Positions 6,610 through 30,752 of a stretch of DNA of 64,000 bases are shown in pieces. Below the pieces are notes generated by a model. The model saw only the letters and a list, made by a program, of their open reading frames with translations, ran no database searches and was not told the DNA's origin. A program made the translations under genes and the position numbers. The stretch comes from an uncultured Methanomassiliicoccus sp. GTDB lineage: Archaea; Thermoplasmatota; Thermoplasmata; Methanomassiliicoccales; Methanomassiliicoccaceae. Numbering within the stretch: position 1 is the stretch's first letter; every line of letters begins with the position of its first letter. The DNA lies in assembly GCA_964426205.1 (NCBI GenBank), contig CAYRPG010000005.1, positions 44,574-108,573 of the forward strand. The letters are read 5' to 3'.

Positions 6610-9051
6610 ATGGCCATGAGCAGGCTTATCATCTCGGAGAAGAGCGATGCTGCTGCGAGGATCGCCACGATCCTGTCCAGAGGCGGCTCGAAGAGGATCA
6701 GCATCAACAAGGTGCCGGTCTTCCAGTTCGAGGATGATGGCGGGCCGGTTCATATCATCGGGCTGAGGGGTCACATCATAGAGCTTGACTATCCGGCGGC
6801 CCTTAATGATTGGCGGGGCGTGAACCTGGCCGACCTGATCAAGGCCGAGCCGGAGAAGCGCATCACCGCTCACAACATCGTGTCGACGCTCCGTGACATC
6901 TCCAAGGATGTCGACGAGGTCGTCATCGCGACCGACTTTGACCGCGAGGGAGAGCTCATCGGCCTGGAGACCGCCAGGCTGCTGGACCTTCAGGGCAAGA
7001 AGGTAGGCAGGGCAAGGTTCAGCGCGTTCACCCGCCAGGAGATCGACACCGCCTTCGGCTCGCTCACCGAGCCGGACGAGAGGCTGGCCGATTCGGCGGA
7101 GTGCCGCCAGAAGATCGACCTGGCATGGGGCGCCGTGCTCACCCGGTTCATCTCCCTGGCCTCCAACCAGGGAGGCAGTAACTTCCTGTCCGTGGGCAGG
7201 GTCCAGAGCCCCACGCTCGCGCTCGTCGTGGCCAGGCACAAGGCGATAGAGGAGTTCGTACCAAAACCCTACTGGAACGTCAACGCCCGGTTCGAGAAGG
7301 GCGCGGAGTTCACTGGCCATCACGTCAAGAACCCCTTCAATGAGGAGGCCAAGGCCGCGGAGGCCCTCGCCAACTGCAAGGGACAGGAGAAGGGGAGGGT
7401 GACCCGGTACGAGAAGAACGAGAAGGACGAGTATCCCCTCCCCCCGTTCAACACCACCATGCTCCTCATGGAGGCGAACAAGCTCGGCTTCACCGCCGCC
7501 AGGGCCATGAAGATCGCCGAGGACCTCTATACTGCCGGCTACATATCATATCCAAGGACGGACAACACCGTATACCCGACATCGCTCGGGCTGCGCCGCA
7601 TCCTGGAGAAGCTCAAGGAGTCGGAAGACCTGAAGAAGGAGGCCGAGGAGCTCCTGCAGCAGGAGCACATAAGGCCGTCCCGGGGCAAGGTCCAGACGAC
7701 CGATCACCCGCCTATCTATCCGACCGAGGCGGCGACGAGCAAGCAGCTGAAGGGGGAGAAGTGGGCAATATACGAGCTTGTGGCCCGGAGATTCATGGCC
7801 ACCGTGGCCCCGCCGGCGAAGGCCCAGCTGTCGAGCGCGTCCATCGACGTCAACGGAGAGGTGTTCGACTCCAAGGGCTACAAGCTGCTCTTCCCCGGCT
7901 GGAAGAAGTACTATCCATATTTCAAGGTCAACGAGATCGATCTGCCAGAGCTTGTGGTGGGCGAGGACGTCGCGCTGAAGGAGGTATCTTCGGACAAGAA
8001 GATGACACAACCGCCGGCGCGCTACTCCCAGGGAAGCCTCATCCAGGAGATGGAGAGGCTCGCGCTGGGCACCAAGTCCACGAGGCACGACATCATCCAG
8101 AAGCTCTACGACCGCAAGTACGTGGAGGGCAACGACCTCATACCGACCGCCAGCGGCGTTGCGGTGGCCGAGGCGCTGATAAAGCACGCACAGATCGTCA
8201 CCGACCCGAAGATGACCGCCCACCTGGAGCAGGACATGGACGACATCGCCAACGGGAAGGCCGCCCTGGACGAGGTCGTGGAAGAGTCGCAGGACATGCT
8301 CTCTGACATCCTGGATACGATGGAGGACCACCGCCAGCAGATCGGCGATGAGATCAGGAAGGCCATCGAGGAGCAGCACTACATGGGCAAGTGTCCCGAT
8401 TGCGGCTCGGACCTCAAGGTGATAAGGGCCAAGTTCGGGAAGCCCTTCGTCGGCTGCTCCAGCTACCCCGACTGCAAGCGCATCTATCAGTATCCGCCGT
8501 CCGCGCTGGTCCAGGCGACCGGCGAGGTGTGCGAGGTGTGCAGATCCCCCATGGTCCGCGTCGTACGCCGCGGCCAGCCGCCACAGGTGCAATGTCTCGA
8601 TCCGGCATGCGAGAGCAACCGGGAGAGGACGACCGTCGGCGTCTGCCCCAAGTGCGGCAAGGACCTCCGCGTCCTGTACTCGAGAGCGGGCAAGCGTTTC
8701 CTGGGCTGCTCCGGATATCCTGACTGCAAGCAGACCTATCCCCTTCCGCAGTTCGGCAAGTTCTCCGCTACCGGTGAGAAGTGCGAGCAGTGCGGAGCGC
8801 CTGTCCTCCAGATCTGGATGAGGGGGCAGTCGTGGAGGTCCTGCGCGGACATGGACTGTCCCTCCAAGAACAAGGAAAAGAAGGAGGGAGCGAAGAAGGC
8901 CGCTCCGAAGAAGAAGGCCACCGCGAGCAAGACGGCGGCGAAGGAGACGACCGCCAAGAAGACCGCGGTGAAGAAGGCCGCTGCCAAGAAACCGGCGACG
9001 AAGAGGTCGGCCAAGGCTGAACCCGCTCCCGCCCCCGCGACCACCCAGTGA
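6610..9051 (+). CDS. topA: DNA topoisomerase I (type IA) with multiple C-terminal zinc ribbons and a Lys/Ala-rich tail
   Basis: 813 aa: Toprim N-terminus, type IA core with an active-site region motif (GYISYPRTD), several C4 ribbons, then about 60 aa of a KKAA-type tail. Confidence 0.9.
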   Translation: MAMSRLIISEKSDAAARIATILSRGGSKRISINKVPVFQFEDDGGPVHIIGLRGHIIELDYPAALNDWRGVNLADLIKAEPEKRITAHNIVSTLRDISKDVDEVVIATDFDREGELIGLETARLLDLQGKKVGRARFSAFTRQEIDTAFGSLTEPDERLADSAECRQKIDLAWGAVLTRFISLASNQGGSNFLSVGRVQSPTLALVVARHKAIEEFVPKPYWNVNARFEKGAEFTGHHVKNPFNEEAKAAEALANCKGQEKGRVTRYEKNEKDEYPLPPFNTTMLLMEANKLGFTAARAMKIAEDLYTAGYISYPRTDNTVYPTSLGLRRILEKLKESEDLKKEAEELLQQEHIRPSRGKVQTTDHPPIYPTEAATSKQLKGEKWAIYELVARRFMATVAPPAKAQLSSASIDVNGEVFDSKGYKLLFPGWKKYYPYFKVNEIDLPELVVGEDVALKEVSSDKKMTQPPARYSQGSLIQEMERLALGTKSTRHDIIQKLYDRKYVEGNDLIPTASGVAVAEALIKHAQIVTDPKMTAHLEQDMDDIANGKAALDEVVEESQDMLSDILDTMEDHRQQIGDEIRKAIEEQHYMGKCPDCGSDLKVIRAKFGKPFVGCSSYPDCKRIYQYPPSALVQATGEVCEVCRSPMVRVVRRGQPPQVQCLDPACESNRERTTVGVCPKCGKDLRVLYSRAGKRFLGCSGYPDCKQTYPLPQFGKFSATGEKCEQCGAPVLQIWMRGQSWRSCADMDCPSKNKEKKEGAKKAAPKKKATASKTAAKETTAKKTAVKKAAAKKPATKRSAKAEPAPAPATTQ

Positions 9052-9913: not shown

Positions 9914-10474
9914 CTAGGCCTCTGGGAGCTCCCGATCGAGCAGTATCAGGGCGTCGTACATGCCGACCAGACCTACGACCCTGGACGTTGCCACCCCGAT
10001 CTCAGGGTCCCTTGATAGGTTGCTCCATGTCGCCATCAACCTGGCGGTCCGGTCAGGGATCGTCCCTAGACCAATGATCAGATTCTTCCTAGTACCATAG
10101 GCTACCAGCTGCCTCATGAGCTCCTCGCTCTCTCTTACCCTGGTGAGCTGAGGTTTGATCTCTTCAGTAACAATATCGACCGCTTTTCGAAAAACCGCGA
10201 TGCTCACAGTTTCCATTATCCTGCTACGCGTTAGCTTCCCCGGCAGCACAATGCCGTCTGGGACGGTCCCCCTCTCAGACGAAACGATCATGCTTCTCAG
10301 CATGGCAAGGTTCGATGCTATGGGCACTTTGCTCTTCGCCATCAGCTCCTCCATCCTCACCAGCCATTCTTTTACCGATGGGGGGAAGGCCCTATCATGC
10401 CGATCATACATGTCCACCATGGAGGGGGCTTGCAGGAGAAGTTCCTGAACCACGTCCAATGAGGGGATGTTCAT
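9914..10474 (-). CDS. hypothetical all-helical protein, third gene of the low-GC cassette
   Basis: 186 aa, starting 9 nt after the stop of the upstream gene. No motif I recognise. Confidence 0.55.
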   Translation of the reverse strand: MNIPSLDVVQELLLQAPSMVDMYDRHDRAFPPSVKEWLVRMEELMAKSKVPIASNLAMLRSMIVSSERGTVPDGIVLPGKLTRSRIMETVSIAVFRKAVDIVTEEIKPQLTRVRESEELMRQLVAYGTRKNLIIGLGTIPDRTARLMATWSNLSRDPEIGVATSRVVGLVGMYDALILLDRELPEA

Positions 10475-10483
10475 TGTGCTCGC

Positions 10484-11182
10484 CTATTCGGGAACCAGAC
10501 GGCTTTTCATCCCGCCCTTTGTGTCGATCCTTGTTATCTCGAACCCATCCTCCGACATGGTGATGTGGAGGGTCACGAGGTTCTCGAGTGGGCCTGCCTG
10601 CATCACCTCTGCCGTCGTGGCCTTGACACTTAGCCGGGGAGGCTGAACAGATAGTCCTACGGCCTTCGCCCTAACCGCCGGTACGAGCTCATCGGAGAAC
10701 CTCTGCGCAGACTCCTCATCAGGCAACCACCCAGTTTCCTTGAGGTAGGACAAAGCGGTGGATGAGGCTTCATCCGCTATGCCAACGACACCGACCGACA
10801 CCTCTACCGGTTGTTCAGACCTCGCCATGGTGTTGGTTATACGGTTGACCAGTTCGTTCTTCTCATCCCCGCTCAGGCCCAGTTTGAACTTCCGCATTTT
10901 TGTTTCCACGGTTTGCTGGATCCCTTTCTTCAGATCGTCTTTTGACACTCCTCCTCTTGGTGAGAGGTGCCCTTTAGGTTCCTCGATCTTATCTATGATT
11001 ACCGGGACCGCGAGCTCTATCGTCGGAAGCCTGAAATGAGGTACCGGGAAATGTTGCAGGATCGGGTCGGCATCGTAATAGTCGGCGATCCTCTTAGTCT
11101 CCAGGTCAACCTGATGCCTCGCGATTATCAGCTCTGATGCGATCGTTCCGACCAGATCTCCAAGATATGGCATGTCGACCAC
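10484..11182 (-). CDS. hypothetical protein, paralog of the 11243-11875 product
   Basis: 232 aa. It shares with the upstream gene an N-terminal helix motif (LGDLVGTIASELIIARHQ versus FASMIGGPLTAVVNAQAQ) and a second motif (FRLPTIELAVPVIIDKIEE versus LRVPILTMLPIPFIRIEE). Confidence 0.6.
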   Translation of the reverse strand: MVDMPYLGDLVGTIASELIIARHQVDLETKRIADYYDADPILQHFPVPHFRLPTIELAVPVIIDKIEEPKGHLSPRGGVSKDDLKKGIQQTVETKMRKFKLGLSGDEKNELVNRITNTMARSEQPVEVSVGVVGIADEASSTALSYLKETGWLPDEESAQRFSDELVPAVRAKAVGLSVQPPRLSVKATTAEVMQAGPLENLVTLHITMSEDGFEITRIDTKGGMKSRLVPE

Positions 11183-11242
11183 TCGTCCTGTCCTACCATG
11201 ATTTTCATTGGGGCGACTGCTTGATCAGGGCTAAGGTCATCC

Positions 11243-11875
11243 TCAGCTCGAGTGGGGCTTGTCCTGCATCGACCCCTCCAGCATCGTCAATAGCCTCTCC
11301 AGACCTGCTGGCATCTCATCCTGCACCGCCCGAACATGGATTGCCATCGAATAGGTACGTTCCACGTTCGAGCCGGACTCCGTGTTCCTCTTGTAGGAGA
11401 CCGATACATTGAGCTTCGCACTTGCTGTCAGCCATCCAGCCTTTGCCTCAAGGCTTGAGGATATGTCAAGCTCGCTGGTGGTTTTCGAATATTCCATCGA
11501 GTTGATCTTGGCATTGAAATCGATCGTTGTCTCTTCGATCCTTATGAAGGGTATCGGGAGCATGGTGAGTATTGGCACCCGGAGATCGAACGTGCCGTAC
11601 TTCGGATCGGTGCCCTTCTGTTCGGGATGGTCTGCCGGTGGCGGGACATATGGCGTTATCATCTTTGTGTAGGTGAAATCCACATACACCGGTTCAATGT
11701 CCGTTTCTGTTGCACCGGATTTATCGGATTTCTTGAACCCTACGGCCTTTATGAAGTTCACAGAGCTCAAGGCTGCTTGAGCCTGTGCGTTCACCACAGC
11801 CGTTAGGGGCCCGCCGATCATAGACGCGAAGTCTATGCTAGATAGCTCTGTTCCTGGGTCAACCATTCTCTCCAC
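11243..11875 (-). CDS. hypothetical protein (recalls DUF2589; unverified memory), first gene of the low-GC cassette
   Basis: 210 aa: an N-terminal amphipathic helix followed by a beta-rich C-terminal half. Preceded by a 420-bp AT-rich spacer. Confidence 0.6.
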   Translation of the reverse strand: MERMVDPGTELSSIDFASMIGGPLTAVVNAQAQAALSSVNFIKAVGFKKSDKSGATETDIEPVYVDFTYTKMITPYVPPPADHPEQKGTDPKYGTFDLRVPILTMLPIPFIRIEETTIDFNAKINSMEYSKTTSELDISSSLEAKAGWLTASAKLNVSVSYKRNTESGSNVERTYSMAIHVRAVQDEMPAGLERLLTMLEGSMQDKPHSS

Positions 11876-12296
11876 CCCATGTTAGACTTTTCTATATTTC
11901 TAGAACGTCCTCTATTTAATAGTGATTATAGCATGCTACTTTCTTTTAATTTCAAAATAATTCTTATGACCTCGGTAGGGGGGACAGACAGACCATGGAC
12001 ATCTGGGGGCAGAATCCGAGGACAAGGTCCTAATGCTGGTGCCGGTCCCCCTGGGAGATCGAAGGGTAGTTAGAACCGCTGAGATACTTCCTCCCCATCC
12101 GCGACGCCCGTCGCGGAGAATTTTGAGAACGGTCCACAGGTCATCGGTTAATAAAAATCGAAGGAGGCCCTGTACTGGAAAATATATGCTCTTTTTAAGG
12201 CATCTATGATCTCGATCGATCACCCATTCAGGTCTGCAACATACAATAATGAACTCGAGATTCTAGAGTAGAGACATCCTATCGTGCAGGTGAGAG

Positions 12297-18859: not shown

Positions 18860-21718
18860 TCAGTCAGCACTGTCTCCGCGGTGCTCTCCGACCAGCACCA
18901 TGTATGCGAGCAGCGACTCGAGCTGGATGCGCTCGTTCGATCCCTCGACGATGCGGAACTCCGTCTCTCCGGTGCGGTCGATCAGCTTCACCTTCTCATA
19001 GTCCGGTATATCGAGGTCGAATATCGTGCGGTGTATCTGCTTGATGATATCCTCGCCCGACAGCCCGTAGGATATCATGATCTCGTCAAGGCGGTTACGA
19101 GCGGCTATGAAATCACCGGTTATCGCTGTCTGGAGGAGCTCCCTGACCTCTTCCGGTCTTGCCGTCCCGGTGGTGTGGTAGACGAGGTCCACATTGATCT
19201 TATCGCCCAGCGACGCGGCCACCTGAAGGGAGTTGACGGCTTTCCTCATGTCCCCCTGGGACACGTGCACGAGCGCGTCCAGCGCATCATCGGTTATGCT
19301 GATTGCCTCAAGGGACGCGATATGCGTCAGGTAGTTGCGGACATCCTCAGCCCTCAGGGGGCGGAAGCGGAACACCGCGCATCTCGACTGGATGGGCTCG
19401 ATGATCTTTGAACTATAGTTACAATTGTGAGATACTATTCCGTTCGCAATGAAGTTGTGATTGTTCAGGCAGCCTATGTCACGCACGTCGTCGCACTCTA
19501 TCTCTCTCTTGCCGATGATTTCGTTCAAGACAAGCTCGGTCCCTGGAATATCGTACCGTTGCTCCCACTCCGAGTAACCCATGAAGCTTCTTGGCAGGTG
19601 CACTGGTTTGCCTTGGTTCACATGGATAACGAAATCCACGCTGCATCCATTTCTTCTCGAGATCTCACGCAGCGAGCGTTTACCGATCTCAAGCATTATT
19701 TGCGATGCTTTATTCTCCTGTTGCTCGAGAACGAATTGCTTGTGCTTTAGATACTCTCCAGCGAGTTGTGCTTTTTTCATCCTGTTCTTTTCATACGCGT
19801 ACCCTACCTTCTTGAAAAAGGCCAGCATGTTCTCGTTCGAGGAGTTTAGCACTAAGCTGAAGACAATCGGTACTTTTCTGTCCTTCTTCCTTGAGTATCC
19901 TGTCGATCTTTCCTCGATGTAGCTTTTTATGTCAAATTGAGCTAGAAGGTCCCTCATTTGCTCAAAGAAGGTCAATGCCTCAGCCCTTAACTCGGGCACC
20001 TTTTGCTGTCTGAACGATATCGCATTGAATGATTTCCTACCATCATGCGCAGGCGAGTCCGCCTCGCATCCGAACAACGAGCGCAGGAATTCCCTCTTGA
20101 CGAAACGGGTCCCATTGGCCACCCACGAGGGAATCGAGAAGCTCGTTGTTACCTTGTCACCGATCGGCGCCCCGAGGTACTCGCAGAGGAGAGCGAATGG
20201 TAGCGAGTCCACGTGGAACCAGGTTGTTGTCCCGACCAAGCGCCTTTGTGCTAGCTTATGGTCGATCCTCTTACTGTAGATATCCGAGCTTTTTATATGG
20301 AGGATCTCAAGGTCTTTTTTAACAGCATTCAGAGTGTCTTCGTTCCCCGTGAAAATTAGCCTTCTGCTCTTCCTCGTTACATGACCATCGCCCATTAAAA
20401 AGGCCACTATCCTGGCTAATGCGCCGATATGCTCGTCAGAATATGAGAGAGGAAGCAGTCCCTTCTGGGCCAATTCGTTGATGACCCTGTCCACAGTGCC
20501 CTTTGGAATATCCCTTCTCTTTATGTGTCTCTCGACTGTGGCAAACGCGACCTCTATCCCAAATTCCTTTTTGATCGCATTCTGTATGTCCCCTATGTTC
20601 CTTATCGAATGATGCGGCCCGATAGCCCTGAAATTATGGGTCTTTTTGTCAACTGTCCTTTCGACAGCCCCTTTTTGTTCTATGCTCCTCAATAATTGGC
20701 AAGTTCGGACCCTGCTAAGGTTGAGAGCGTTCTGTACCTCTTCCCGTGATGCTTTTCCCCTTGAGCTTATATAGTCATATGCTTCCTTCTCACGAACGGT
20801 GAGTCCCTTTCCCTGGGTGACGAGGGAGTGCAGCTCCCTGATCCTTTTTATTACGTTATCCTTCTGGACGGTCGTCATCCCCTTGAACGCCCCGTTGTCA
20901 TTGGCGCGCTCCAGCTCCACTTCTGAGATGAATTTTTTAAAGTCCTCTGGATCGACCACTTGCCTCAGGTCGTCCTCAAATGGTGTCCCTTCGAGGTTTG
21001 GGTAAACTACGACCTCCGTCCCCAGAGCTATCTCGCCTGCTTTAGTCCAACCATCCTTGGTCAGAATAGGATGATCCTCAGTAACCTTGAGGATTCTGCC
21101 ATTCATCGTGGTAAGCTCATATACTTTTTTACCATTGGCGGAGGGGTTCATCTGCATACCGAACAGGACCAGGTCGTTCTCCAGACCTCTCGTTCCTTCG
21201 TTGACCCCGAGAGTGTTCTTTATCTCCCTGTTCTCAAACCTCCGCATGAAGTCGGCTATCGATATCTCCCTGTCCTCTGAGAGAAGGATCTTTGTGTCTG
21301 GTGTAACGCACGATAGAATGAATCTGCAGGTCTTGCTGTACTTCTCCATCGTTCGCCTCAATGCTGCCTGCGCGTCACCGGTTAGAGCGTCGGCCTCGTC
21401 CAGGAAAATGATCTTGAAACCGGCGCCCCCGATGGGCGCCGTCCTTGCGAAATCCTTTATCTTGCCACGGACCACATCGATGCCCCTCTCGTCCGACGCG
21501 TTCAGCTCGTTGAAGTTGCCCCTCCAGTTCTCCCCGAAGAGCTCCCTGGCCAGAGCGATGGCGGAGGTGGTCTTACCGGTGCCGGCCGGACCAGCGAACA
21601 TCAGGTGGGGAAGGTTCTTCGCCTGAACGTAGGACTCCAGGCGGTCCACGATGTCCTTCTGTCCGACGATCTCCTTAAGCGTCCTCGGCCGGTACTTCTC
21701 TATCCAAATCTCATTCAT
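18860..21718 (-). CDS. rfcS: replication factor C small subunit precursor containing one intein
   Basis: The exteins (136 + 187 aa) give a standard RFC small subunit with Walker [13 protein letters not shown] box FLDEAD and RFILS|[15 protein letters not shown]. Confidence 0.9.
19424..21310 (-). mobile_element. 629-aa intein with LAGLIDADG homing-endonuclease core
   Basis: Starts at Cys ([10 protein letters not shown]) and has block [18 protein letters not shown] motifs [11 protein letters not shown] and [11 protein letters not shown], and terminal [13 protein letters not shown] followed by the +1 Cys. Visibly more AT-rich than the exteins. Confidence 0.85.
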
Positions 21719-24814: not shown

Positions 24815-26647
24815 CTACCTTGCGGGGTACAGGTCCGATATGCCCAGCTCGACCGAGCGCTGCTGGACGGCCTCGCGGACCTCGGGGGACATCTCGATCT
24901 CGTCCGGCCATTCTCTCGCGTGACCGTCGGCCACCCCCTTCTTGGAGGCGTCGATGGACACAGACGTGTCGGTCAGCCTGATGTCCCTCTGGGGGTCCAC
25001 GTTGTTGAAGAACTTCCATAGGCACAGCGAATCGTCGCGCAGATCGATGTCGTCGTAGAGCACGAACGCTCCCTCTCCCACCAGCTCCCGGCAGGACGCC
25101 AGCGGCCCGAGGAAGTGCATGGTCCCCCGGCCCGCCTTGCGCATGCCGATCAGGATGAGGGGGGTCCTCCGCTCCGTCCCCACCCTCCGGCAAGAGACGA
25201 TGTCCCTGTCCAGGCCCCTCAGGATCTCGAGGACCTCGGTCTCCGACAGCCTGGGAGAGAAGCGCCCGCGCCCGCGGGGGGTCTCGTCCGTCAGCCGGGC
25301 GGTGGCATCGATGCCCAGCTTCCCTCCGAACAGGGGCCTGGGGGCCGAGTGGTCGAGGACGTCCAGAACGCCCTCCGTCACCTGGAGGTCGGACCACGGG
25401 TCGATGGTGTCCAGCAGATGGCCGAAGACGTCCCCGGGCACCTTGAGCGAGACGTCGGAGTCCACTACGGCGATCATCTTGGCGAAGCTCATCTGTCCGG
25501 AGCCCCACAGGGCGTTCATGACCTTGCGGGCATGAAGGGGATACTCCTTCCTTATCGAAACGACGACGATGTTGTGGAATACGCCCTCCCAGGGCATCCA
25601 CTGGTCGACCACCTCAGGCACCACGATGCGCAGGGGCGGAAGGAATATCCTCTCGGTGGCCTTGGCCAGGTAGCAGTCCTCCATCGGCGGCCTTCCCACC
25701 ACCGTGGCCGGATAGATGGCGTCCCTGCGGTGCGTGATCGCCGTCACGTGGAACACCGGATATTCACCCTTCAGCGAGTAGTAGCCAGTATGGTCGCCGA
25801 AGGGGCCCTCGGTCCTCATCTCCTGCGGGTCGACGTAACCTTCCAGTACGAACTCCGCGGTCGCGGGCACCTCGATGTCGACGGTCCTGCACTTCACAAG
25901 GTCCACCGGTGCTCCCCGGATGAAGCCCGCCAGCAGCATCTCGTCCAGGCCCTGGGGCATGGGGGCGGTGGCCGCGTAGGTGATCGCAGGCGCGGTCCCG
26001 ATGGCCACCGCCACCTCCATCCTCCTCCCCTCCTTCTTATACCCCATGTAGTTGTGGCTCCCGTCCTTGTGGACGTGCCAGTGCATGCCCGTGGTGTTGC
26101 GGCCGTAGACCTGCAGGCGATACATGCCCACGTTCCTCCTCCCGTCCATGCTCTTGGTGAAGACCACCGGGAGGGTCACGAAGCGCCCGCCGTCCTGGGG
26201 CCAGCACTTGAGGACCGGGATCTTGCCGAGGTCCACCTCGTCGCCCTGCAGGACAACCTCCTGGCAGGGCGGGCGCGATGATCTCTTTACGCGCGGGATG
26301 CACTTCGCTAGGCCCATCAGCTCGGGCAGGGTGCCCACCTTGCCCATGAAGGTGGAGGGCATCTGCATCTCCAGCAGACCGGAGATCCTGGCCGCCAGCG
26401 TGTCCAGCGAATCGGTCTCCAGCGCCAGCGCCATCCTTCCCTCGCTGCCGAAGGCGTTGGTGAGAACGGGGAACTCGCTGCCGCGGACCTTCTCGAACAG
26501 CAGCGCCTTGCCTCCGCCCGGGCTCTTGGACATGCGGTCCGTGATCTCGGTGATCTCCAGCTCGGCCGATACCTCGCCCTTGATCCTCCGCAGCTCCCCC
26601 TTGCTCTCGAGGAGGTCGACGAACTCGTGCAGGTCCCTGTAGGTCAT
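24815..26647 (-). CDS. UbiD-family (prenylated-FMN-dependent) aromatic decarboxylase
   Basis: 610 aa with a typical UbiD N-terminus (DLHEFVDLLESKGELRRI). Translationally coupled (ATGA) to the upstream methyltransferase gene. Confidence 0.85.
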   Translation of the reverse strand: MTYRDLHEFVDLLESKGELRRIKGEVSAELEITEITDRMSKSPGGGKALLFEKVRGSEFPVLTNAFGSEGRMALALETDSLDTLAARISGLLEMQMPSTFMGKVGTLPELMGLAKCIPRVKRSSRPPCQEVVLQGDEVDLGKIPVLKCWPQDGGRFVTLPVVFTKSMDGRRNVGMYRLQVYGRNTTGMHWHVHKDGSHNYMGYKKEGRRMEVAVAIGTAPAITYAATAPMPQGLDEMLLAGFIRGAPVDLVKCRTVDIEVPATAEFVLEGYVDPQEMRTEGPFGDHTGYYSLKGEYPVFHVTAITHRRDAIYPATVVGRPPMEDCYLAKATERIFLPPLRIVVPEVVDQWMPWEGVFHNIVVVSIRKEYPLHARKVMNALWGSGQMSFAKMIAVVDSDVSLKVPGDVFGHLLDTIDPWSDLQVTEGVLDVLDHSAPRPLFGGKLGIDATARLTDETPRGRGRFSPRLSETEVLEILRGLDRDIVSCRRVGTERRTPLILIGMRKAGRGTMHFLGPLASCRELVGEGAFVLYDDIDLRDDSLCLWKFFNNVDPQRDIRLTDTSVSIDASKKGVADGHAREWPDEIEMSPEVREAVQQRSVELGISDLYPAR

Positions 26648-27378
26648 GAGGACCCCTTCTCCAGCACATAGATGTGGCAGGCCCCGAGCGTCAGCTCCCT
26701 TGACCTCAGGACGTGGAGACCACGGGCCTCCATCATGCCCTCCAGGACCTTCGGAGCTGGGAAGGTGATGATCGAGTCGCAGAGGTAACGGTACGAGGAA
26801 GCATCACCTTTCTGCATCCTCACCACCATGGGCATCACCCTGGTCAGGTAGAGAAGGAACGCCTCCTTCACGACCGGGAACCGGGGCACAGACATCTCCA
26901 CCACCGCCAGGCGGCCCCCCGGGCGGAGGATGCGATGGACCTCGCCGAGGAAGCGGTCGATGTCCACCATGTTGCGGATGCCGAAGGCGACCATCGCCCG
27001 ATCGAACGAACCGTCCTTGAAGGGCATGCGGAGGGCATCGCCCTGGAGCACCGAGTACGGATCTTCGCCGACCTTCGCTCTCCACTTGTCCAGCGCGGTC
27101 CGCAACATGTTCTTCGAGAGATCGACCCCGACGATCTGGCAATCCTTCATCGAGATGGCCTGCAGGGCCATATCCCCCGTCCCGGTGGCTATGTCCAGGA
27201 CCCGGTCGCCCTGCTGGATGTCCAGCTCCATCAGGGTCTCCCTCCTCCACCATCGATCGATGGACGCGGACATGATGAGGTTGAGCCGGTCATAGGTCGG
27301 GGTGATGTCATCGAACATACCCTCGATGCGGGCCGGCCTCTTGTCAAGCTCCTTCCTTATGCTGGCATGTTCGCTCAT
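26644..27378 (-). CDS. UbiE/MenG-type C-methyltransferase
   Basis: The last 244 aa of the 594-aa track ORF, starting at MSEHAS. Contains the SAM motif VLDIATGTGD and FGIRN. Confidence 0.85.
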   Translation of the reverse strand: MSEHASIRKELDKRPARIEGMFDDITPTYDRLNLIMSASIDRWWRRETLMELDIQQGDRVLDIATGTGDMALQAISMKDCQIVGVDLSKNMLRTALDKWRAKVGEDPYSVLQGDALRMPFKDGSFDRAMVAFGIRNMVDIDRFLGEVHRILRPGGRLAVVEMSVPRFPVVKEAFLLYLTRVMPMVVRMQKGDASSYRYLCDSIITFPAPKVLEGMMEARGLHVLRSRELTLGACHIYVLEKGSS

Positions 27379-27422
27379 CACAGTCCCCTCGTTCTCTTCG
27401 CAAGTGTTGGCACGGTCCGGTC

Positions 27423-29051
27423 TCATATCAGGAAGGCCCCCAGGGCCACGGCGACGAACACCATGATGGATATCACGCTGTTGACATCGAAGAACGCGAC
27501 GTTTATCTTTGAAAGGTCCGACGGCCTGACCAGCAGATGCTCGATGACGAAGAGACCGCCGATGAGGGCCACGCAGACCAGGTAGGCTATGCTGAGGTCG
27601 AGCAGCCAGTACAGGGATGCCAGGCTCACGATGCTTATGACGTGCAGGCCGGTGGATATGAGCAGCGCGGGGGTTACGCCCAGGCGCGACGGTATGGACC
27701 GCAGCCCCTCCCTGCGGTCGAACTCGATGTCCTGGCATGCATAGAGGATATCGAAGCCGGCGATGTAGGTCGAGAGGGCAAGGCTCAGGACCGCGGTGGC
27801 CATCGTGATGGTCCCGGTGACCGCCACACTCGCCCCCAGGGGCATGAGGCCTATGGATATGCCCAGCACCAGGTGGCTGGCGGAGGTGAACCTCTTCGTA
27901 AAGGAGTATCCGATCAGGATCGCCAGCACCGGGAACGACAGGACGAGGCACAGCGGCGACAGCATCGCCGCCGCTCCGACGAAGACCGCCGCGGAGAACA
28001 CGCCGAACATCGTGGCCTCTCGGACCGATAGTGTCCCGGACGGTATGTGCCGCTTCGCCGTTCGCGGGTTCCTGCCGTCGATACCGGCGTCGATCACCCG
28101 GTTGAAGCCCATCGCCGCGGAGCGTGCGCTCACGATCGCGACGATGATCCAGAGCATCGCCTCCGCGCTGATGGCATAGTCCTTGTTGAGGATCACCAGG
28201 GCCGCGAGCCCGAAGGGCAGGGCGAACACGGTGTGGCTTATCTTGATCATATGGGAGTAGGTGACGATCTTTTCCCACAGCCGCCCCTTCTCCTCCTCTT
28301 CCTCGCCCTGCACCATCCAACGGCAGCTCCTGCGCTCTAGGAAGGTAAAGGCCTCGTAGATCGTTATCCCCAGGAGGCTCATGGCCAGGATGCCGACGTA
28401 GATCTGCACGTACTGCCCCCAGTTCCACGCGCTCATGATCATGTACCCGAGGCCGGAGGAGCCGGCGAAGGTCTCGGCGAAGAACAGCACCGAGATCGAC
28501 GTCCCGGTGACTATGCGCAGGGCGGTGAAGCAGCTGGGGAGCGCCGCGGGGATCACCGCCTCCCGGATGATGTCCTTCTCCGACGCTCCCATGGAGCGCA
28601 TCGAGTCGATATACTTGCGGTCCAGACCGCTGACGCCTTCCTTGGTCGCCACCAGGATCTGGAAGAAGACCACCAGGGTGATCAGCAGGATCTTGGAGAG
28701 GTCCCCCAGGCCGAACAGCAGGATGATGACCGGCAGGAACACCATCTTCGGTATCGGGTAGGTGAGGAATATGAGGGGGCTGACCAGCCGGTCCGTCTTG
28801 CGATTATAGCCTATGATCATTCCGAGGGGGAAGGCGAGCGTCCAGGCCAGCGCGATGCTCGCGAGCACCCTGAACGAGCTAATGGCGAGATGGGACCAGA
28901 ACTGGCTGGTTCCCGCGGCATCCCAGAACGCCCTCAGGGTCTGCTCCGGGCCCGGAAGGACCACCGATCCGACCGCGAGCGAGGCGACCTTCCAGATGAG
29001 AAGACAGGCGGCCACGGACATGGCATAGCCGAGGAGGCGCTGCTTGTTCAT
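27423..29051 (-). CDS. NitT/TauT-type ABC permease (about aa 1-245) continuous in frame with a UbiA-family prenyltransferase (aa 246-542)
   Basis: The permease start ATG at 29051 overlaps the ATPase stop. The natural permease end ...FLERRSCRW runs straight into MVQGEEEEEKGRLW...NRVIDAGIDGRNPRT (UbiA motif) with no in-frame stop; I checked the junction by hand at 28301-28360. UbiA could instead initiate separately at ATG 28316. Confidence 0.6.
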   Translation of the reverse strand: MNKQRLLGYAMSVAACLLIWKVASLAVGSVVLPGPEQTLRAFWDAAGTSQFWSHLAISSFRVLASIALAWTLAFPLGMIIGYNRKTDRLVSPLIFLTYPIPKMVFLPVIILLFGLGDLSKILLITLVVFFQILVATKEGVSGLDRKYIDSMRSMGASEKDIIREAVIPAALPSCFTALRIVTGTSISVLFFAETFAGSSGLGYMIMSAWNWGQYVQIYVGILAMSLLGITIYEAFTFLERRSCRWMVQGEEEEEKGRLWEKIVTYSHMIKISHTVFALPFGLAALVILNKDYAISAEAMLWIIVAIVSARSAAMGFNRVIDAGIDGRNPRTAKRHIPSGTLSVREATMFGVFSAAVFVGAAAMLSPLCLVLSFPVLAILIGYSFTKRFTSASHLVLGISIGLMPLGASVAVTGTITMATAVLSLALSTYIAGFDILYACQDIEFDRREGLRSIPSRLGVTPALLISTGLHVISIVSLASLYWLLDLSIAYLVCVALIGGLFVIEHLLVRPSDLSKINVAFFDVNSVISIMVFVAVALGAFLI

Positions 29052-29782
29052 AGCGCCTCCACCGCCCGACGGACCTGACGGCACACCTCGAAGAACTCCT
29101 CCTTGTTCCGGTAGTCCCGATCTCCGGCGCCGGGATTGGGAAGGACCGTCCTGATGCTGCACGGCCGGCCGCCGAGGACCATGATCGAGCCGCCGAGGAA
29201 AACGGCCTCCTCGATGCTGTGGGTCACCATCACCATGGTGAGGTCCCGTTGCGACCTGATCTCCAGCATGGCGTTCTGCAGCCTCTCCCGGGTCAGGGTG
29301 TCCAGGGAGGAGAACGGCTCGTCCATGAGGAGGAGGGACGGCTCCAGGGCGAGCGCCCTTCCTATGGCCAGTCTCTGCCTCTCCCCGCCGCTGAGCCGGG
29401 CGGGGTACTTGTCCCCGTGCGGCCCGAGGCCGAGGTGCTCGAGCATCTCCCTCGAACGGCGTTCCTGCTCCTCCTTGGGAACCTTCCTTATCCTCATCCC
29501 AAGGCACAGGTTCTCCTTCACCGTCTTCCACGGGAGGAGCCCGAAGTCCTGAAGAATGAAGCCCACCTGACGGGAGGGGGCGGTGACCTCCCTTCCGTCG
29601 ATGAGCACGCGGCCCGCGGTCGGCTTCGTCAGCCCGGCCATGATGTACAGCAGGGTGCTCTTGCCGCAGCCGGAGGGGCCGATGATGGTCAGCGAGGTGC
29701 CTCTCTTCACTGAGAACGAGAGGTCCTCAAGGACCTTCGTCCCAGCTCCGTACTCCTTGCAGAGGCCCTCGACCGCCAGCAT
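29048..29782 (-). CDS. ABC transporter ATP-binding protein (NitT/TauT family)
   Basis: Walker A GPSGCGKST, signature LSGGERQR, Walker B LLLMDEP. Confidence 0.85.
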   Translation of the reverse strand: MLAVEGLCKEYGAGTKVLEDLSFSVKRGTSLTIIGPSGCGKSTLLYIMAGLTKPTAGRVLIDGREVTAPSRQVGFILQDFGLLPWKTVKENLCLGMRIRKVPKEEQERRSREMLEHLGLGPHGDKYPARLSGGERQRLAIGRALALEPSLLLMDEPFSSLDTLTRERLQNAMLEIRSQRDLTMVMVTHSIEEAVFLGGSIMVLGGRPCSIRTVLPNPGAGDRDYRNKEEFFEVCRQVRRAVEAL

Positions 29783-29786
29783 CAGG

Positions 29787-30752
29787 TCACCGGTACAGCG
29801 CAGTGGCCATCACGTCATCGTACTCGAACCCAGCGGTCAGCATGCCCTTGCCGACCATCCATTCCTGGACCCTCGCCAGGTCGGACCCCGTGGGAAGTGA
29901 GATCGAGGACATGGGAGGGAAGTCGAACGCCTTCTCCAGGTCCGCCGGGAAGTGGATCTTGTCCTCGAGGGTCCTGTTGAACGCCATGGGGTCGGAGTTC
30001 ACCAGGGAGACGCTTTCGTTGTAACCGTCGAGGAAGCTCCTCACGGCACCCTCATGCTCGGAGATGACGCTGTCGCGCAGAGCGAGCACCGTCGCGGCGG
30101 TGTCGATGCCGCGATCGTCCGCCAGGAGGACCGCCCCGTCCTTGATGGCCCGGGTGGCGAACGGTTCCGGCAGGACCGCCACGCCGATCTGGTCGGCCAG
30201 CAGGGAGTTGTACCGGATGGGTATGGACGGTATCTCGTTGATCTTCACCTCGCCGGTGTAGTTGTTGACCCTCAGCATCTCCCCGAGGAAGAACTCGGAG
30301 ATGGACGCGCGGGAGGTGGCGATGGCCGAACCGTTGAGCTGCGAGAGATCGGTGATGCCAGAATGGGGGGAGGCCAGGATGGCGAACATCCGGTGGTCCT
30401 CGAGAGTGTGATAGTCGACGGTGACCACCTTGACGGCGGTGCTCTTCGCGATGACCAGGGTGTTGACCAGATCGCCGAAGTAACCATCGATGCTGCCGGC
30501 AGTGAAGGCAGCGTCACGCTCCATGGCGCTGTTGAACTCCACCAGCTCGACGTTGACACCTTTGTCGGAGAATATGTTATTCTCCGCCCCAACATAGAGG
30601 GGCAAGGTGTCGATCACGGGCAGGACCCCTATCCTCAGGGTCACCTTACCATCGTCGCCCTTGGGTGACAGCATGGTCGCAGCACCCGCGATGATGACAG
30701 CGGACGCGATCAGCAAAGTGATCGCGATGAGTATCTTGTTCCTCTTTTCCAT
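29787..30752 (-). CDS. membrane-anchored ABC substrate-binding protein (NMT1/SsuA-like)
   Basis: 321 aa with an N-terminal signal/anchor helix and a type-2 PBP-like body (RIGVLPVIDTLPLYVG). Confidence 0.8.
   Translation of the reverse strand: MEKRNKILIAITLLIASAVIIAGAATMLSPKGDDGKVTLRIGVLPVIDTLPLYVGAENNIFSDKGVNVELVEFNSAMERDAAFTAGSIDGYFGDLVNTLVIAKSTAVKVVTVDYHTLEDHRMFAILASPHSGITDLSQLNGSAIATSRASISEFFLGEMLRVNNYTGEVKINEIPSIPIRYNSLLADQIGVAVLPEPFATRAIKDGAVLLADDRGIDTAATVLALRDSVISEHEGAVRSFLDGYNESVSLVNSDPMAFNRTLEDKIHFPADLEKAFDFPPMSSISLPTGSDLARVQEWMVGKGMLTAGFEYDDVMATALYR

Follow-up and report, generated by a model that had tools for sequence, protein, structure and literature searches.

In a 64,000-nucleotide stretch of DNA from an uncultured Methanomassiliicoccus species (contig CAYRPG010000005.1; hereafter the window), five co-directional and tightly packed genes on the minus strand (positions 24815–30752) encode the binding protein, ATPase and permease of an ATP-binding cassette (ABC) transporter together with homologs of UbiA, UbiE and UbiD. 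The permease and the UbiA-type prenyltransferase are joined in one protein. We consider it probable, at roughly 0.6, that this operon imports 1,4-dihydroxy-6-naphthoate and converts it to menaquinone, which would represent a salvage route based on the late steps of the futalosine pathway. Our statements on ligand, product, direction of channelling and use of a quinone by the archaeon are inferences.

The source genome is represented by a 2.42-Mb assembly which is 99.96% complete and encodes mcrA. Domains were assigned by Pfam and NCBIfam profile searches using curated cut-offs, and control genomes, including that of the archaeon Sulfolobus, were correctly detected in the searches for ring-forming genes. 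No match to PF02621 (MqnA/MqnD) was obtained in the almost complete genome, and the searches for MqnC and MqnE returned only radical-SAM background, with best scores of 29 and 27 bits, respectively, at cut-offs of about 430. The best match to MenD reached 53 bits (cut-off 244), and MenB yielded no match. A first-pass annotation of this DNA had pointed out that the window is devoid of ring-forming genes. This observation extends to the whole genome, where none of MqnA, MqnC, MqnD, MqnE, MenB and MenD was found and where the profile searches revealed no complete de novo pathway. MqnA/MqnD were similarly missing from all 121 Methanomassiliicoccales genomes sampled (0/121). Because MqnA, MqnC, MqnD and MqnE are all absent, 1,4-dihydroxy-6-naphthoate is the only futalosine intermediate that the remaining enzymes could use.

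The UbiD protein of the operon scored 619.5 bits on TIGR03701 (mena_SCO4490, the MqnL equivalog; model positions 1–433) and thereby passed the cut-off of 495.9. Its best solved relative is E. coli UbiD, which aligned over residues 1–462. The C-terminal extension of approximately 150 amino acids (residues ~460–610, positions 24815–25270) has no solved homolog and is common to the UbiD proteins of about 600 amino acids that are encoded beside MqnP in many Thermodesulfobacteriota and Spirochaetota; UbiD proteins of this length also adjoin MqnP in Syntrophobacteraceae and other groups. The methyltransferase passed TIGR01934 (MenG_MenH_UbiE) with 217.1 bits at a cut-off of 158.35 and is proposed to turn demethylmenaquinone into menaquinone. 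The UbiA domain passed the broad model TIGR01475 (ubiA_other; 268.7 bits, cut-off 180.8) and missed the MqnP models NF041584, NF041585 and NF041586 (226–249 bits, cut-offs 375–430), which are lineage-specific 'exception' models. Both of its Asp-rich motifs are located in invariant columns of the alignment. Apart from the fused domain, the genome encodes no quinone-type UbiA; a further strong match to the family was rejected as a second prenyltransferase of this type, as it represents DGGGP synthase, a lipid enzyme. A search of the genome for ubiX, as suggested by the first-pass annotation, identified a single strong gene (TIGR00421, 202.5 bits) at C8:74922–75455, a locus apart from the operon, where it adjoins the gene of an MMPL-family membrane protein. 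Most bacterial modules carry their own UbiX and the archaeal modules do not, maybe because archaea already keep UbiX for a UbiD-like enzyme of the mevalonate pathway.

In a tree of 123 UbiA domains, the protein of the window fell into a starred clade of 95 rows. Within this clade, fused proteins interleave with unfused proteins from Desulfobacterales, Syntrophobacteraceae and their relatives, which corresponds to four to five changes of state, and the archaeal sequences group in a single clade (support 99) that branches from within the fused bacterial proteins. No MqnP homolog other than the fused protein is present in the 19 bacterial genomes that combine the fusion with a complete early futalosine pathway, so that the fused protein must serve there as the futalosine prenyltransferase. 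This indicates that the fused UbiA domain is the probable working MqnP of the futalosine pathway, and, as judged from profile scores and the tree, that the tailoring enzymes are orthologous to MqnP and MqnL. Of the two assignments offered by the first-pass annotation for the UbiA, UbiD and UbiE homologs, late steps of either the ubiquinone or the futalosine pathway, the latter (MqnP/MqnL/MenG) was thus retained, and the former was dismissed on the basis of the MqnL model and the UbiA tree.

MqnP (SCO4491), MqnL (SCO4490), MqnM/UbiX (SCO4492) and MenG constitute the late futalosine pathway as predicted by Ravcheev and Thiele in 2016, the order of prenylation and decarboxylation being likewise only predicted (PMC4746308). 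The archaeal operon resembles this pathway in that the same enzyme families occur in the same clusters, with a UbiD that passes the MqnL model and a UbiA domain orthologous to MqnP. In contrast to the described pathway, MqnP is here fused to an ABC permease, and the transcription unit also includes the genes of the binding protein and the ATPase; the UbiX gene is located elsewhere, and MqnA–E are missing in this genome as well as in 28 of 47 bacterial carriers.

The relation between importer coupling and early-pathway loss was determined across genomes. The early pathway was scored by two independent searches, using PF02621 for MqnA/MqnD and TIGR03699 at E ≤ 1e-60 for MqnC and MqnE; both agreed genome by genome, with the early genes either all present or all absent. 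Among the 47 bacterial genomes with an importer-coupled MqnP, 28 were devoid of any early futalosine genes and 19 possessed all of them, while all archaeal carriers scored (10/10) lacked them. In genomes with unfused MqnP, MqnA/MqnD were present in 63 of 64 cases, and the single absence (1/64) puts the false-negative rate due to draft genomes at about 2%. Thus, early genes were lost in 38 of 57 importer-coupled genomes compared to 1 of 64 unfused ones. Ring synthesis has been lost essentially only in lineages whose prenyltransferase is tied to the importer, which is exactly the pattern predicted by a salvage route and supports the earlier proposal that the aromatic head group would be scavenged rather than made. 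MenD was not detected in any of the 28 bacterial carriers without early genes, and MenB did not exceed its cut-off in the 12 carriers tested (nine archaeal relatives and three of the 28 bacteria). In one bacterial carrier (G011), a MenB match of 334.8 bits came close to the cut-off of 342.7; as MenD is absent there, the protein was taken as a related crotonase. Along the fused rows of the UbiA tree, the presence of the early pathway changes at least eight times. In carriers that retain de novo synthesis, the importer would supplement or recapture the precursor.

The transporter combines a BPD_transp_1 permease, an ABC ATPase and an extracytoplasmic binding protein, the set that defines a type I binding-protein-dependent ABC importer. 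Bacterial orthologs of the binding protein carry signal peptides (Sec or lipoprotein type) or lipoboxes, indicating that the transporter faces outward and functions as an importer. The binding protein scored 74.6 bits on TIGR01728 (SsuA_fam), at a cut-off of 163.5, and is therefore not a curated sulfonate binder. Its AlphaFold2 (AF2) model had a predicted local distance difference test (pLDDT) score of 94.7, and the best Foldseek matches were SsuA, PqqT, Thi5, TauA and ThiY, all at ≤20% identity. An NMT1-type fold is able to hold anionic aromatic ligands, and binding of a naphthoate by this protein is our proposal. PqqT (PDB 9b1u), which binds pyrroloquinoline quinone and is among the best structural matches, shows that an anionic aromatic quinone carboxylate can be accommodated by this fold; at 17–19% identity no shared ligand can be deduced, and PqqT has no link to prenylation. 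The ATPase, the translation of which displays Walker A, signature and Walker B motifs, is closest to TauB/SsuB/NrtD-type ATPases without exceeding any of the NCBIfam cut-offs, and the permease domain resembles SsuC, TauC and SaoP, again with scores under their cut-offs. The system therefore shares its fold and subunit families with the Ssu, Tau, Nrt and ThiXYZ importers, including one permease gene, one ATPase and a class II binding protein. It differs from these in that no curated cut-off is reached, that the permease bears a C-terminal enzyme domain, and that the binding proteins form a clade of their own linked to MqnP: 54 of the 58 rows in this single group are linked. In the AF2 model of the whole fusion, both domains were predicted with confidence (mean pLDDT 83.6), and the linker (residues 251–255) scored below 50. 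With a predicted template modelling score of 0.60 and a disordered linker, the model allows no claim on a fixed orientation of the two domains.

The positions of the five genes and the two domains of the fusion are compiled in Table 1. In gene order, the junctions consist of a 4-nt gap, a 4-nt overlap, a 44-nt gap and another 4-nt overlap; the start codon of the fusion overlaps the stop codon of the ATPase gene as ATGA, and the permease and UbiA domains are joined in frame via an acidic linker. The packing, the junction sizes and the domain identities described in the first-pass annotation were all reproduced by the reading frames and the Pfam and NCBIfam searches. Comparison with the orthologs in another Methanomassiliicoccus genome (L013) yielded dN/dS values of 0.17–0.50 for all five genes, indicating five real genes that are under purifying selection in a module that is probably in use. 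The operon is flanked by unrelated housekeeping genes encoding a TtuA-like protein, serine hydroxymethyltransferase, phosphoglucose isomerase and an intein-bearing replication factor C (RFC). The RFC small-subunit gene (18860–21718, minus strand) forms a frame of 952 amino acids, and its intein contains a LAGLIDADG homing-endonuclease domain as well as a TrmB/MarR-like helix-turn-helix domain; it coincides with a dip in G+C content to 0.51–0.54, compared to about 0.61 for the window. The composition profile revealed a second stretch of low G+C content (0.527) at positions 10001–12000.

Table 1. Genes and domains of the importer–prenyltransferase operon (positions in the window).
Feature	Position	Strand	Basis
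Substrate-binding protein (321 aa, NMT1/SsuA fold, N-terminal membrane anchor)	29787..30752	-	Pfam NMT1_2, NMT1
ABC ATPase subunit (244 aa)	29048..29782	-	Pfam ABC_tran, 121 bits
Permease~UbiA fusion (542 aa, one open frame)	27423..29051	-	BPD_transp_1 + UbiA
Permease domain of the fusion (~residues 1-255), type I ABC importer	28287..29051	-	BPD_transp_1, residues 74-241
UbiA/MqnP-type polyprenyltransferase domain of the fusion (~residues 256-542)	27423..28286	-	Pfam UbiA, residues 278-525, 172.8 bits
UbiE/MenG-type C-methyltransferase (244 aa)	26644..27378	-	Pfam Ubie_methyltran, 179.8 bits
UbiD-family, MqnL-type decarboxylase dependent on prenylated FMN (prFMN) (610 aa)	24815..26647	-	UbiD_N/UbiD/UbiD_C; TIGR03701

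More than 120 protein clusters (≥51% identity) display a permease followed by a UbiA domain, and the module occurs in at least five phyla, judging from the titles of the sequence records, namely Thermodesulfobacteriota, Spirochaetota, Bdellovibrionota and Chloroflexota in addition to the archaeal Methanomassiliicoccales. In species-representative genomes, the usual order at the locus is binding protein, ATPase, permease–UbiA fusion, usually UbiX, and then a UbiD of about 600 amino acids. The five-gene order of the window was repeated in eight of the nine other Methanomassiliicoccales genomes that were fetched. The exception is the closest public relative, Methanomassiliicoccus sp. UBA386 (L018, ~86% identity), where at 6922–9013 UbiD follows about 40 nt after the UbiA domain with no methyltransferase in between; the first 122 residues of the permease were also unmatched, which could be a real difference in the module or a defect of the draft assembly. 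Within the order, 15 of the 121 sampled genomes carry the module. All of these are among the larger genomes, and within the genus itself 6 of the 11 genomes sampled possess the module and 5 lack it. With such a distribution, the module is an accessory trait; the first-pass annotation had raised the question of which membrane carrier is used in Methanomassiliicoccales, and the general carrier of the order cannot be the one predicted here.

The binding-protein tree mirrors the UbiA tree, indicating that the module travelled as a unit. The archaeal binding proteins form a clade (support 100) which adjoins sequences from Spirochaetota, and the archaea most likely acquired the module from bacteria. 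Standalone transporters of Desulfovibrionaceae are located in a separate starred clade. Adjacency of the transporter and the tailoring genes, for which the first-pass annotation had proposed a co-occurrence analysis, is strongly conserved in its fused form, both in archaea and in at least four phyla of bacteria. The first-pass annotation had named three findings as incompatible with salvage, a complete de novo pathway in the genome, clustering of the transporter with sulfonate or nitrate importers, and an adjacency that is not conserved; none of these was obtained, and for the second, the low SsuA_fam score and the almost exclusively MqnP-linked clade of the binding protein are relevant. In Thermaerobacter marianensis (L167), UbiD, UbiA and UbiX are encoded directly upstream of an unfused binding protein, ATPase and permease. 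This represents an independent, unfused linkage of the same transporter family to late futalosine genes, in a genome that also has matches to MqnA, MqnC and MqnE. In two Leptospirales genomes (L102 and L103) and one of Dehalococcoidales (L140), the permease is unfused, and neither an MqnP homolog nor MqnA/MqnD was found in these genomes. The Leptospirales orthologs fall within the MqnP-linked clade, and in L103 a radical SAM gene and a gene for a molybdopterin oxidoreductase come after that of the permease. In these three genomes the transporter may serve another purpose. The gene contexts of standalone orthologs were also considered as a clue to function, and were heterogeneous and uninformative.

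Based on these results, the following sequence of events is proposed. The high-affinity, binding-protein-dependent ABC importer would capture a naphthoate head group that bacteria in the vicinity release in soluble form. The most likely candidate is 1,4-dihydroxy-6-naphthoate, beyond which the futalosine pathway has no further soluble intermediate. The permease would hand this ligand, on the cytoplasmic side of the membrane, to its own C-terminal MqnP domain, by which a polyprenyl tail would be attached. MqnL (UbiD) would then take off the 6-carboxyl group using prFMN provided by the UbiX that is encoded elsewhere in the genome, and UbiE/MenG would finally methylate demethylmenaquinone to menaquinone. 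The fusion suggests channelling of a scarce and easily oxidised substrate.

Other explanations for the module were weighed. An importer of the same architecture might take up some other aromatic acid, for example 4-hydroxybenzoate, 1,4-dihydroxy-2-naphthoate or a further hydroxy-aromatic carboxylate, with another prenylated quinone or phenol as the product. We regard this as unlikely, although it draws on the indirect way in which the ligand is assigned to the binding protein, the structural neighbours of which bind very different ligands, on the activity of UbiA, UbiD and UbiE homologs towards rings derived from 4-hydroxybenzoate, and on the score of about 248 bits on MqnP models with cut-offs of 375–430, which leaves the broad TIGR01475 as the only model passed by the UbiA domain. 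Such a role is difficult to reconcile with a UbiD that passes the MqnL equivalog model, with a fused UbiA that is the sole MqnP in 19 genomes with the full early futalosine pathway, and with the grouping of the fused domain with unfused MqnP proteins, the genomes of which encode MqnA/MqnD in 63 of 64 cases. In addition, production of a benzoquinone from 4-hydroxybenzoate requires ring hydroxylases, none of which is encoded in the operon (the genome was not searched for them), and no UbiD is involved when MenA processes 1,4-dihydroxy-2-naphthoate.

It also appears improbable that the transporter imports a nutrient unrelated to quinones, for example a sulfonate, or has a scaffold or regulatory role, the ring being derived from an unknown de novo route in genomes without Mqn or Men enzymes. 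The similarity of the transporter subunits to the Ssu/Tau/Nrt families, the 19 fused carriers that make the ring themselves, and the occurrence of standalone orthologs in complete de novo genomes and in the three genomes in which no MqnP homolog was found would fit such a role. It does not predict that all four early genes are lost in 38 of 57 coupled but only 1 of 64 unfused genomes, nor that the fused and linked arrangement persists in at least five phyla and has been passed on, by descent or by transfer, as a single unit; the independent adjacency in Thermaerobacter and the score of the binding protein under the SsuA family cut-off argue against it as well. Finally, the archaeal module might be a recently acquired bacterial cassette that is silent, decaying or physiologically useless, as its patchy occurrence (15/121, with absence from some genomes of the same genus), an archaeal clade nested among bacteria that suggests horizontal transfer, and the lack of an identified quinol-using partner in the genome might imply. 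We consider this very unlikely, given five intact frames with conserved motifs, dN/dS values of 0.17–0.50 between Methanomassiliicoccus genomes, and a gene order that two archaeal subclades, which together span two families, have in common at 65–86% identity.

Salvage of 1,4-dihydroxy-6-naphthoate remains the reading we favour, and several observations weigh against it. At ≤20% identity between the binding protein and its solved relatives, the fold match gives no ligand. About 40% of the bacterial carriers (19/47) also make the ring, so that the importer is not a simple replacement of synthesis. The distribution of fused and unfused proteins provides only one to three phylogenetically independent contrasts, which is too few for a formal test. 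Close relatives of the transporter stand alone in Desulfovibrionaceae genomes with a full de novo pathway, and further relatives occur in the two Leptospirales genomes and the one Dehalococcoidales genome, where the query used found no MqnP homolog. With regard to a quinol-using partner, cytochrome bd was detected in 1 of the 121 genomes of the order and not in the source genome, in which NrfD, NarI/HdrE and VKOR were not found either. As the redox potential of menaquinone is higher than that of the heterodisulfide couple, a role in methanogenic electron transport is not obvious. Furthermore, the late futalosine steps have themselves been derived for the most part from genomic predictions (PMC4746308).

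In the current model of energy conservation in Methanomassiliicoccus, the Fpo-like complex acts directly on HdrD, with no HdrE, cytochromes or lipid carrier (PMC7374477). Among the potential quinone partners searched for in the source genome, only an Fpo-like complex I homolog is present, as represented by FpoH/NuoH-type subunits. We tentatively suggest, as a possibility that we hold with less than even confidence, that some free-living members of Methanomassiliicoccus and related genera make menaquinone from a ring scavenged from bacteria and use it in membrane electron transfer, for example with the Fpo-like complex. If this is true, such methanogens would depend on bacteria with the futalosine pathway for a respiratory cofactor.

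Salvage of 1,4-dihydroxy-2-naphthoate by organisms that possess only menA and menG has been put forward as a hypothesis (PMC4746308), and quinones have been described as growth factors (PMC5738691). As in that proposed salvage, only the membrane-bound late steps are kept here and a soluble ring precursor would come from the community; the former, however, concerns the classical pathway and has no identified importer, whereas here the late futalosine steps are combined with a candidate importer fused to the first enzyme. The annotation of transporters that import menaquinone precursors is still outstanding (PMC4746308), and our full-text literature searches yielded no description of a permease–MqnP fusion or of a quinone in Methanomassiliicoccales. 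All components of the module come from known families; the likely novelty lies in the physical link between an importer and MqnP and in the cross-genome pattern that points to precursor salvage.

Exchange of precursors between microbes has been proposed earlier, and the module provides a concrete and testable importer candidate in at least five phyla, which in most carriers is the only visible source of the ring. If the proposed function is correct, the permease–MqnP fusion would be the first known importer of a menaquinone precursor and a coupled import-and-prenylation machine. On this reading, microbial communities of anoxic habitats should share 1,4-dihydroxy-6-naphthoate as a metabolite. 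A quinone is likewise predicted for methanogens that have been modelled without a lipid carrier and in which no genes for building the menaquinone ring were found. For these archaea, a quinone could mean additional electron-transport abilities or a nutritional dependency relevant to their cultivation.

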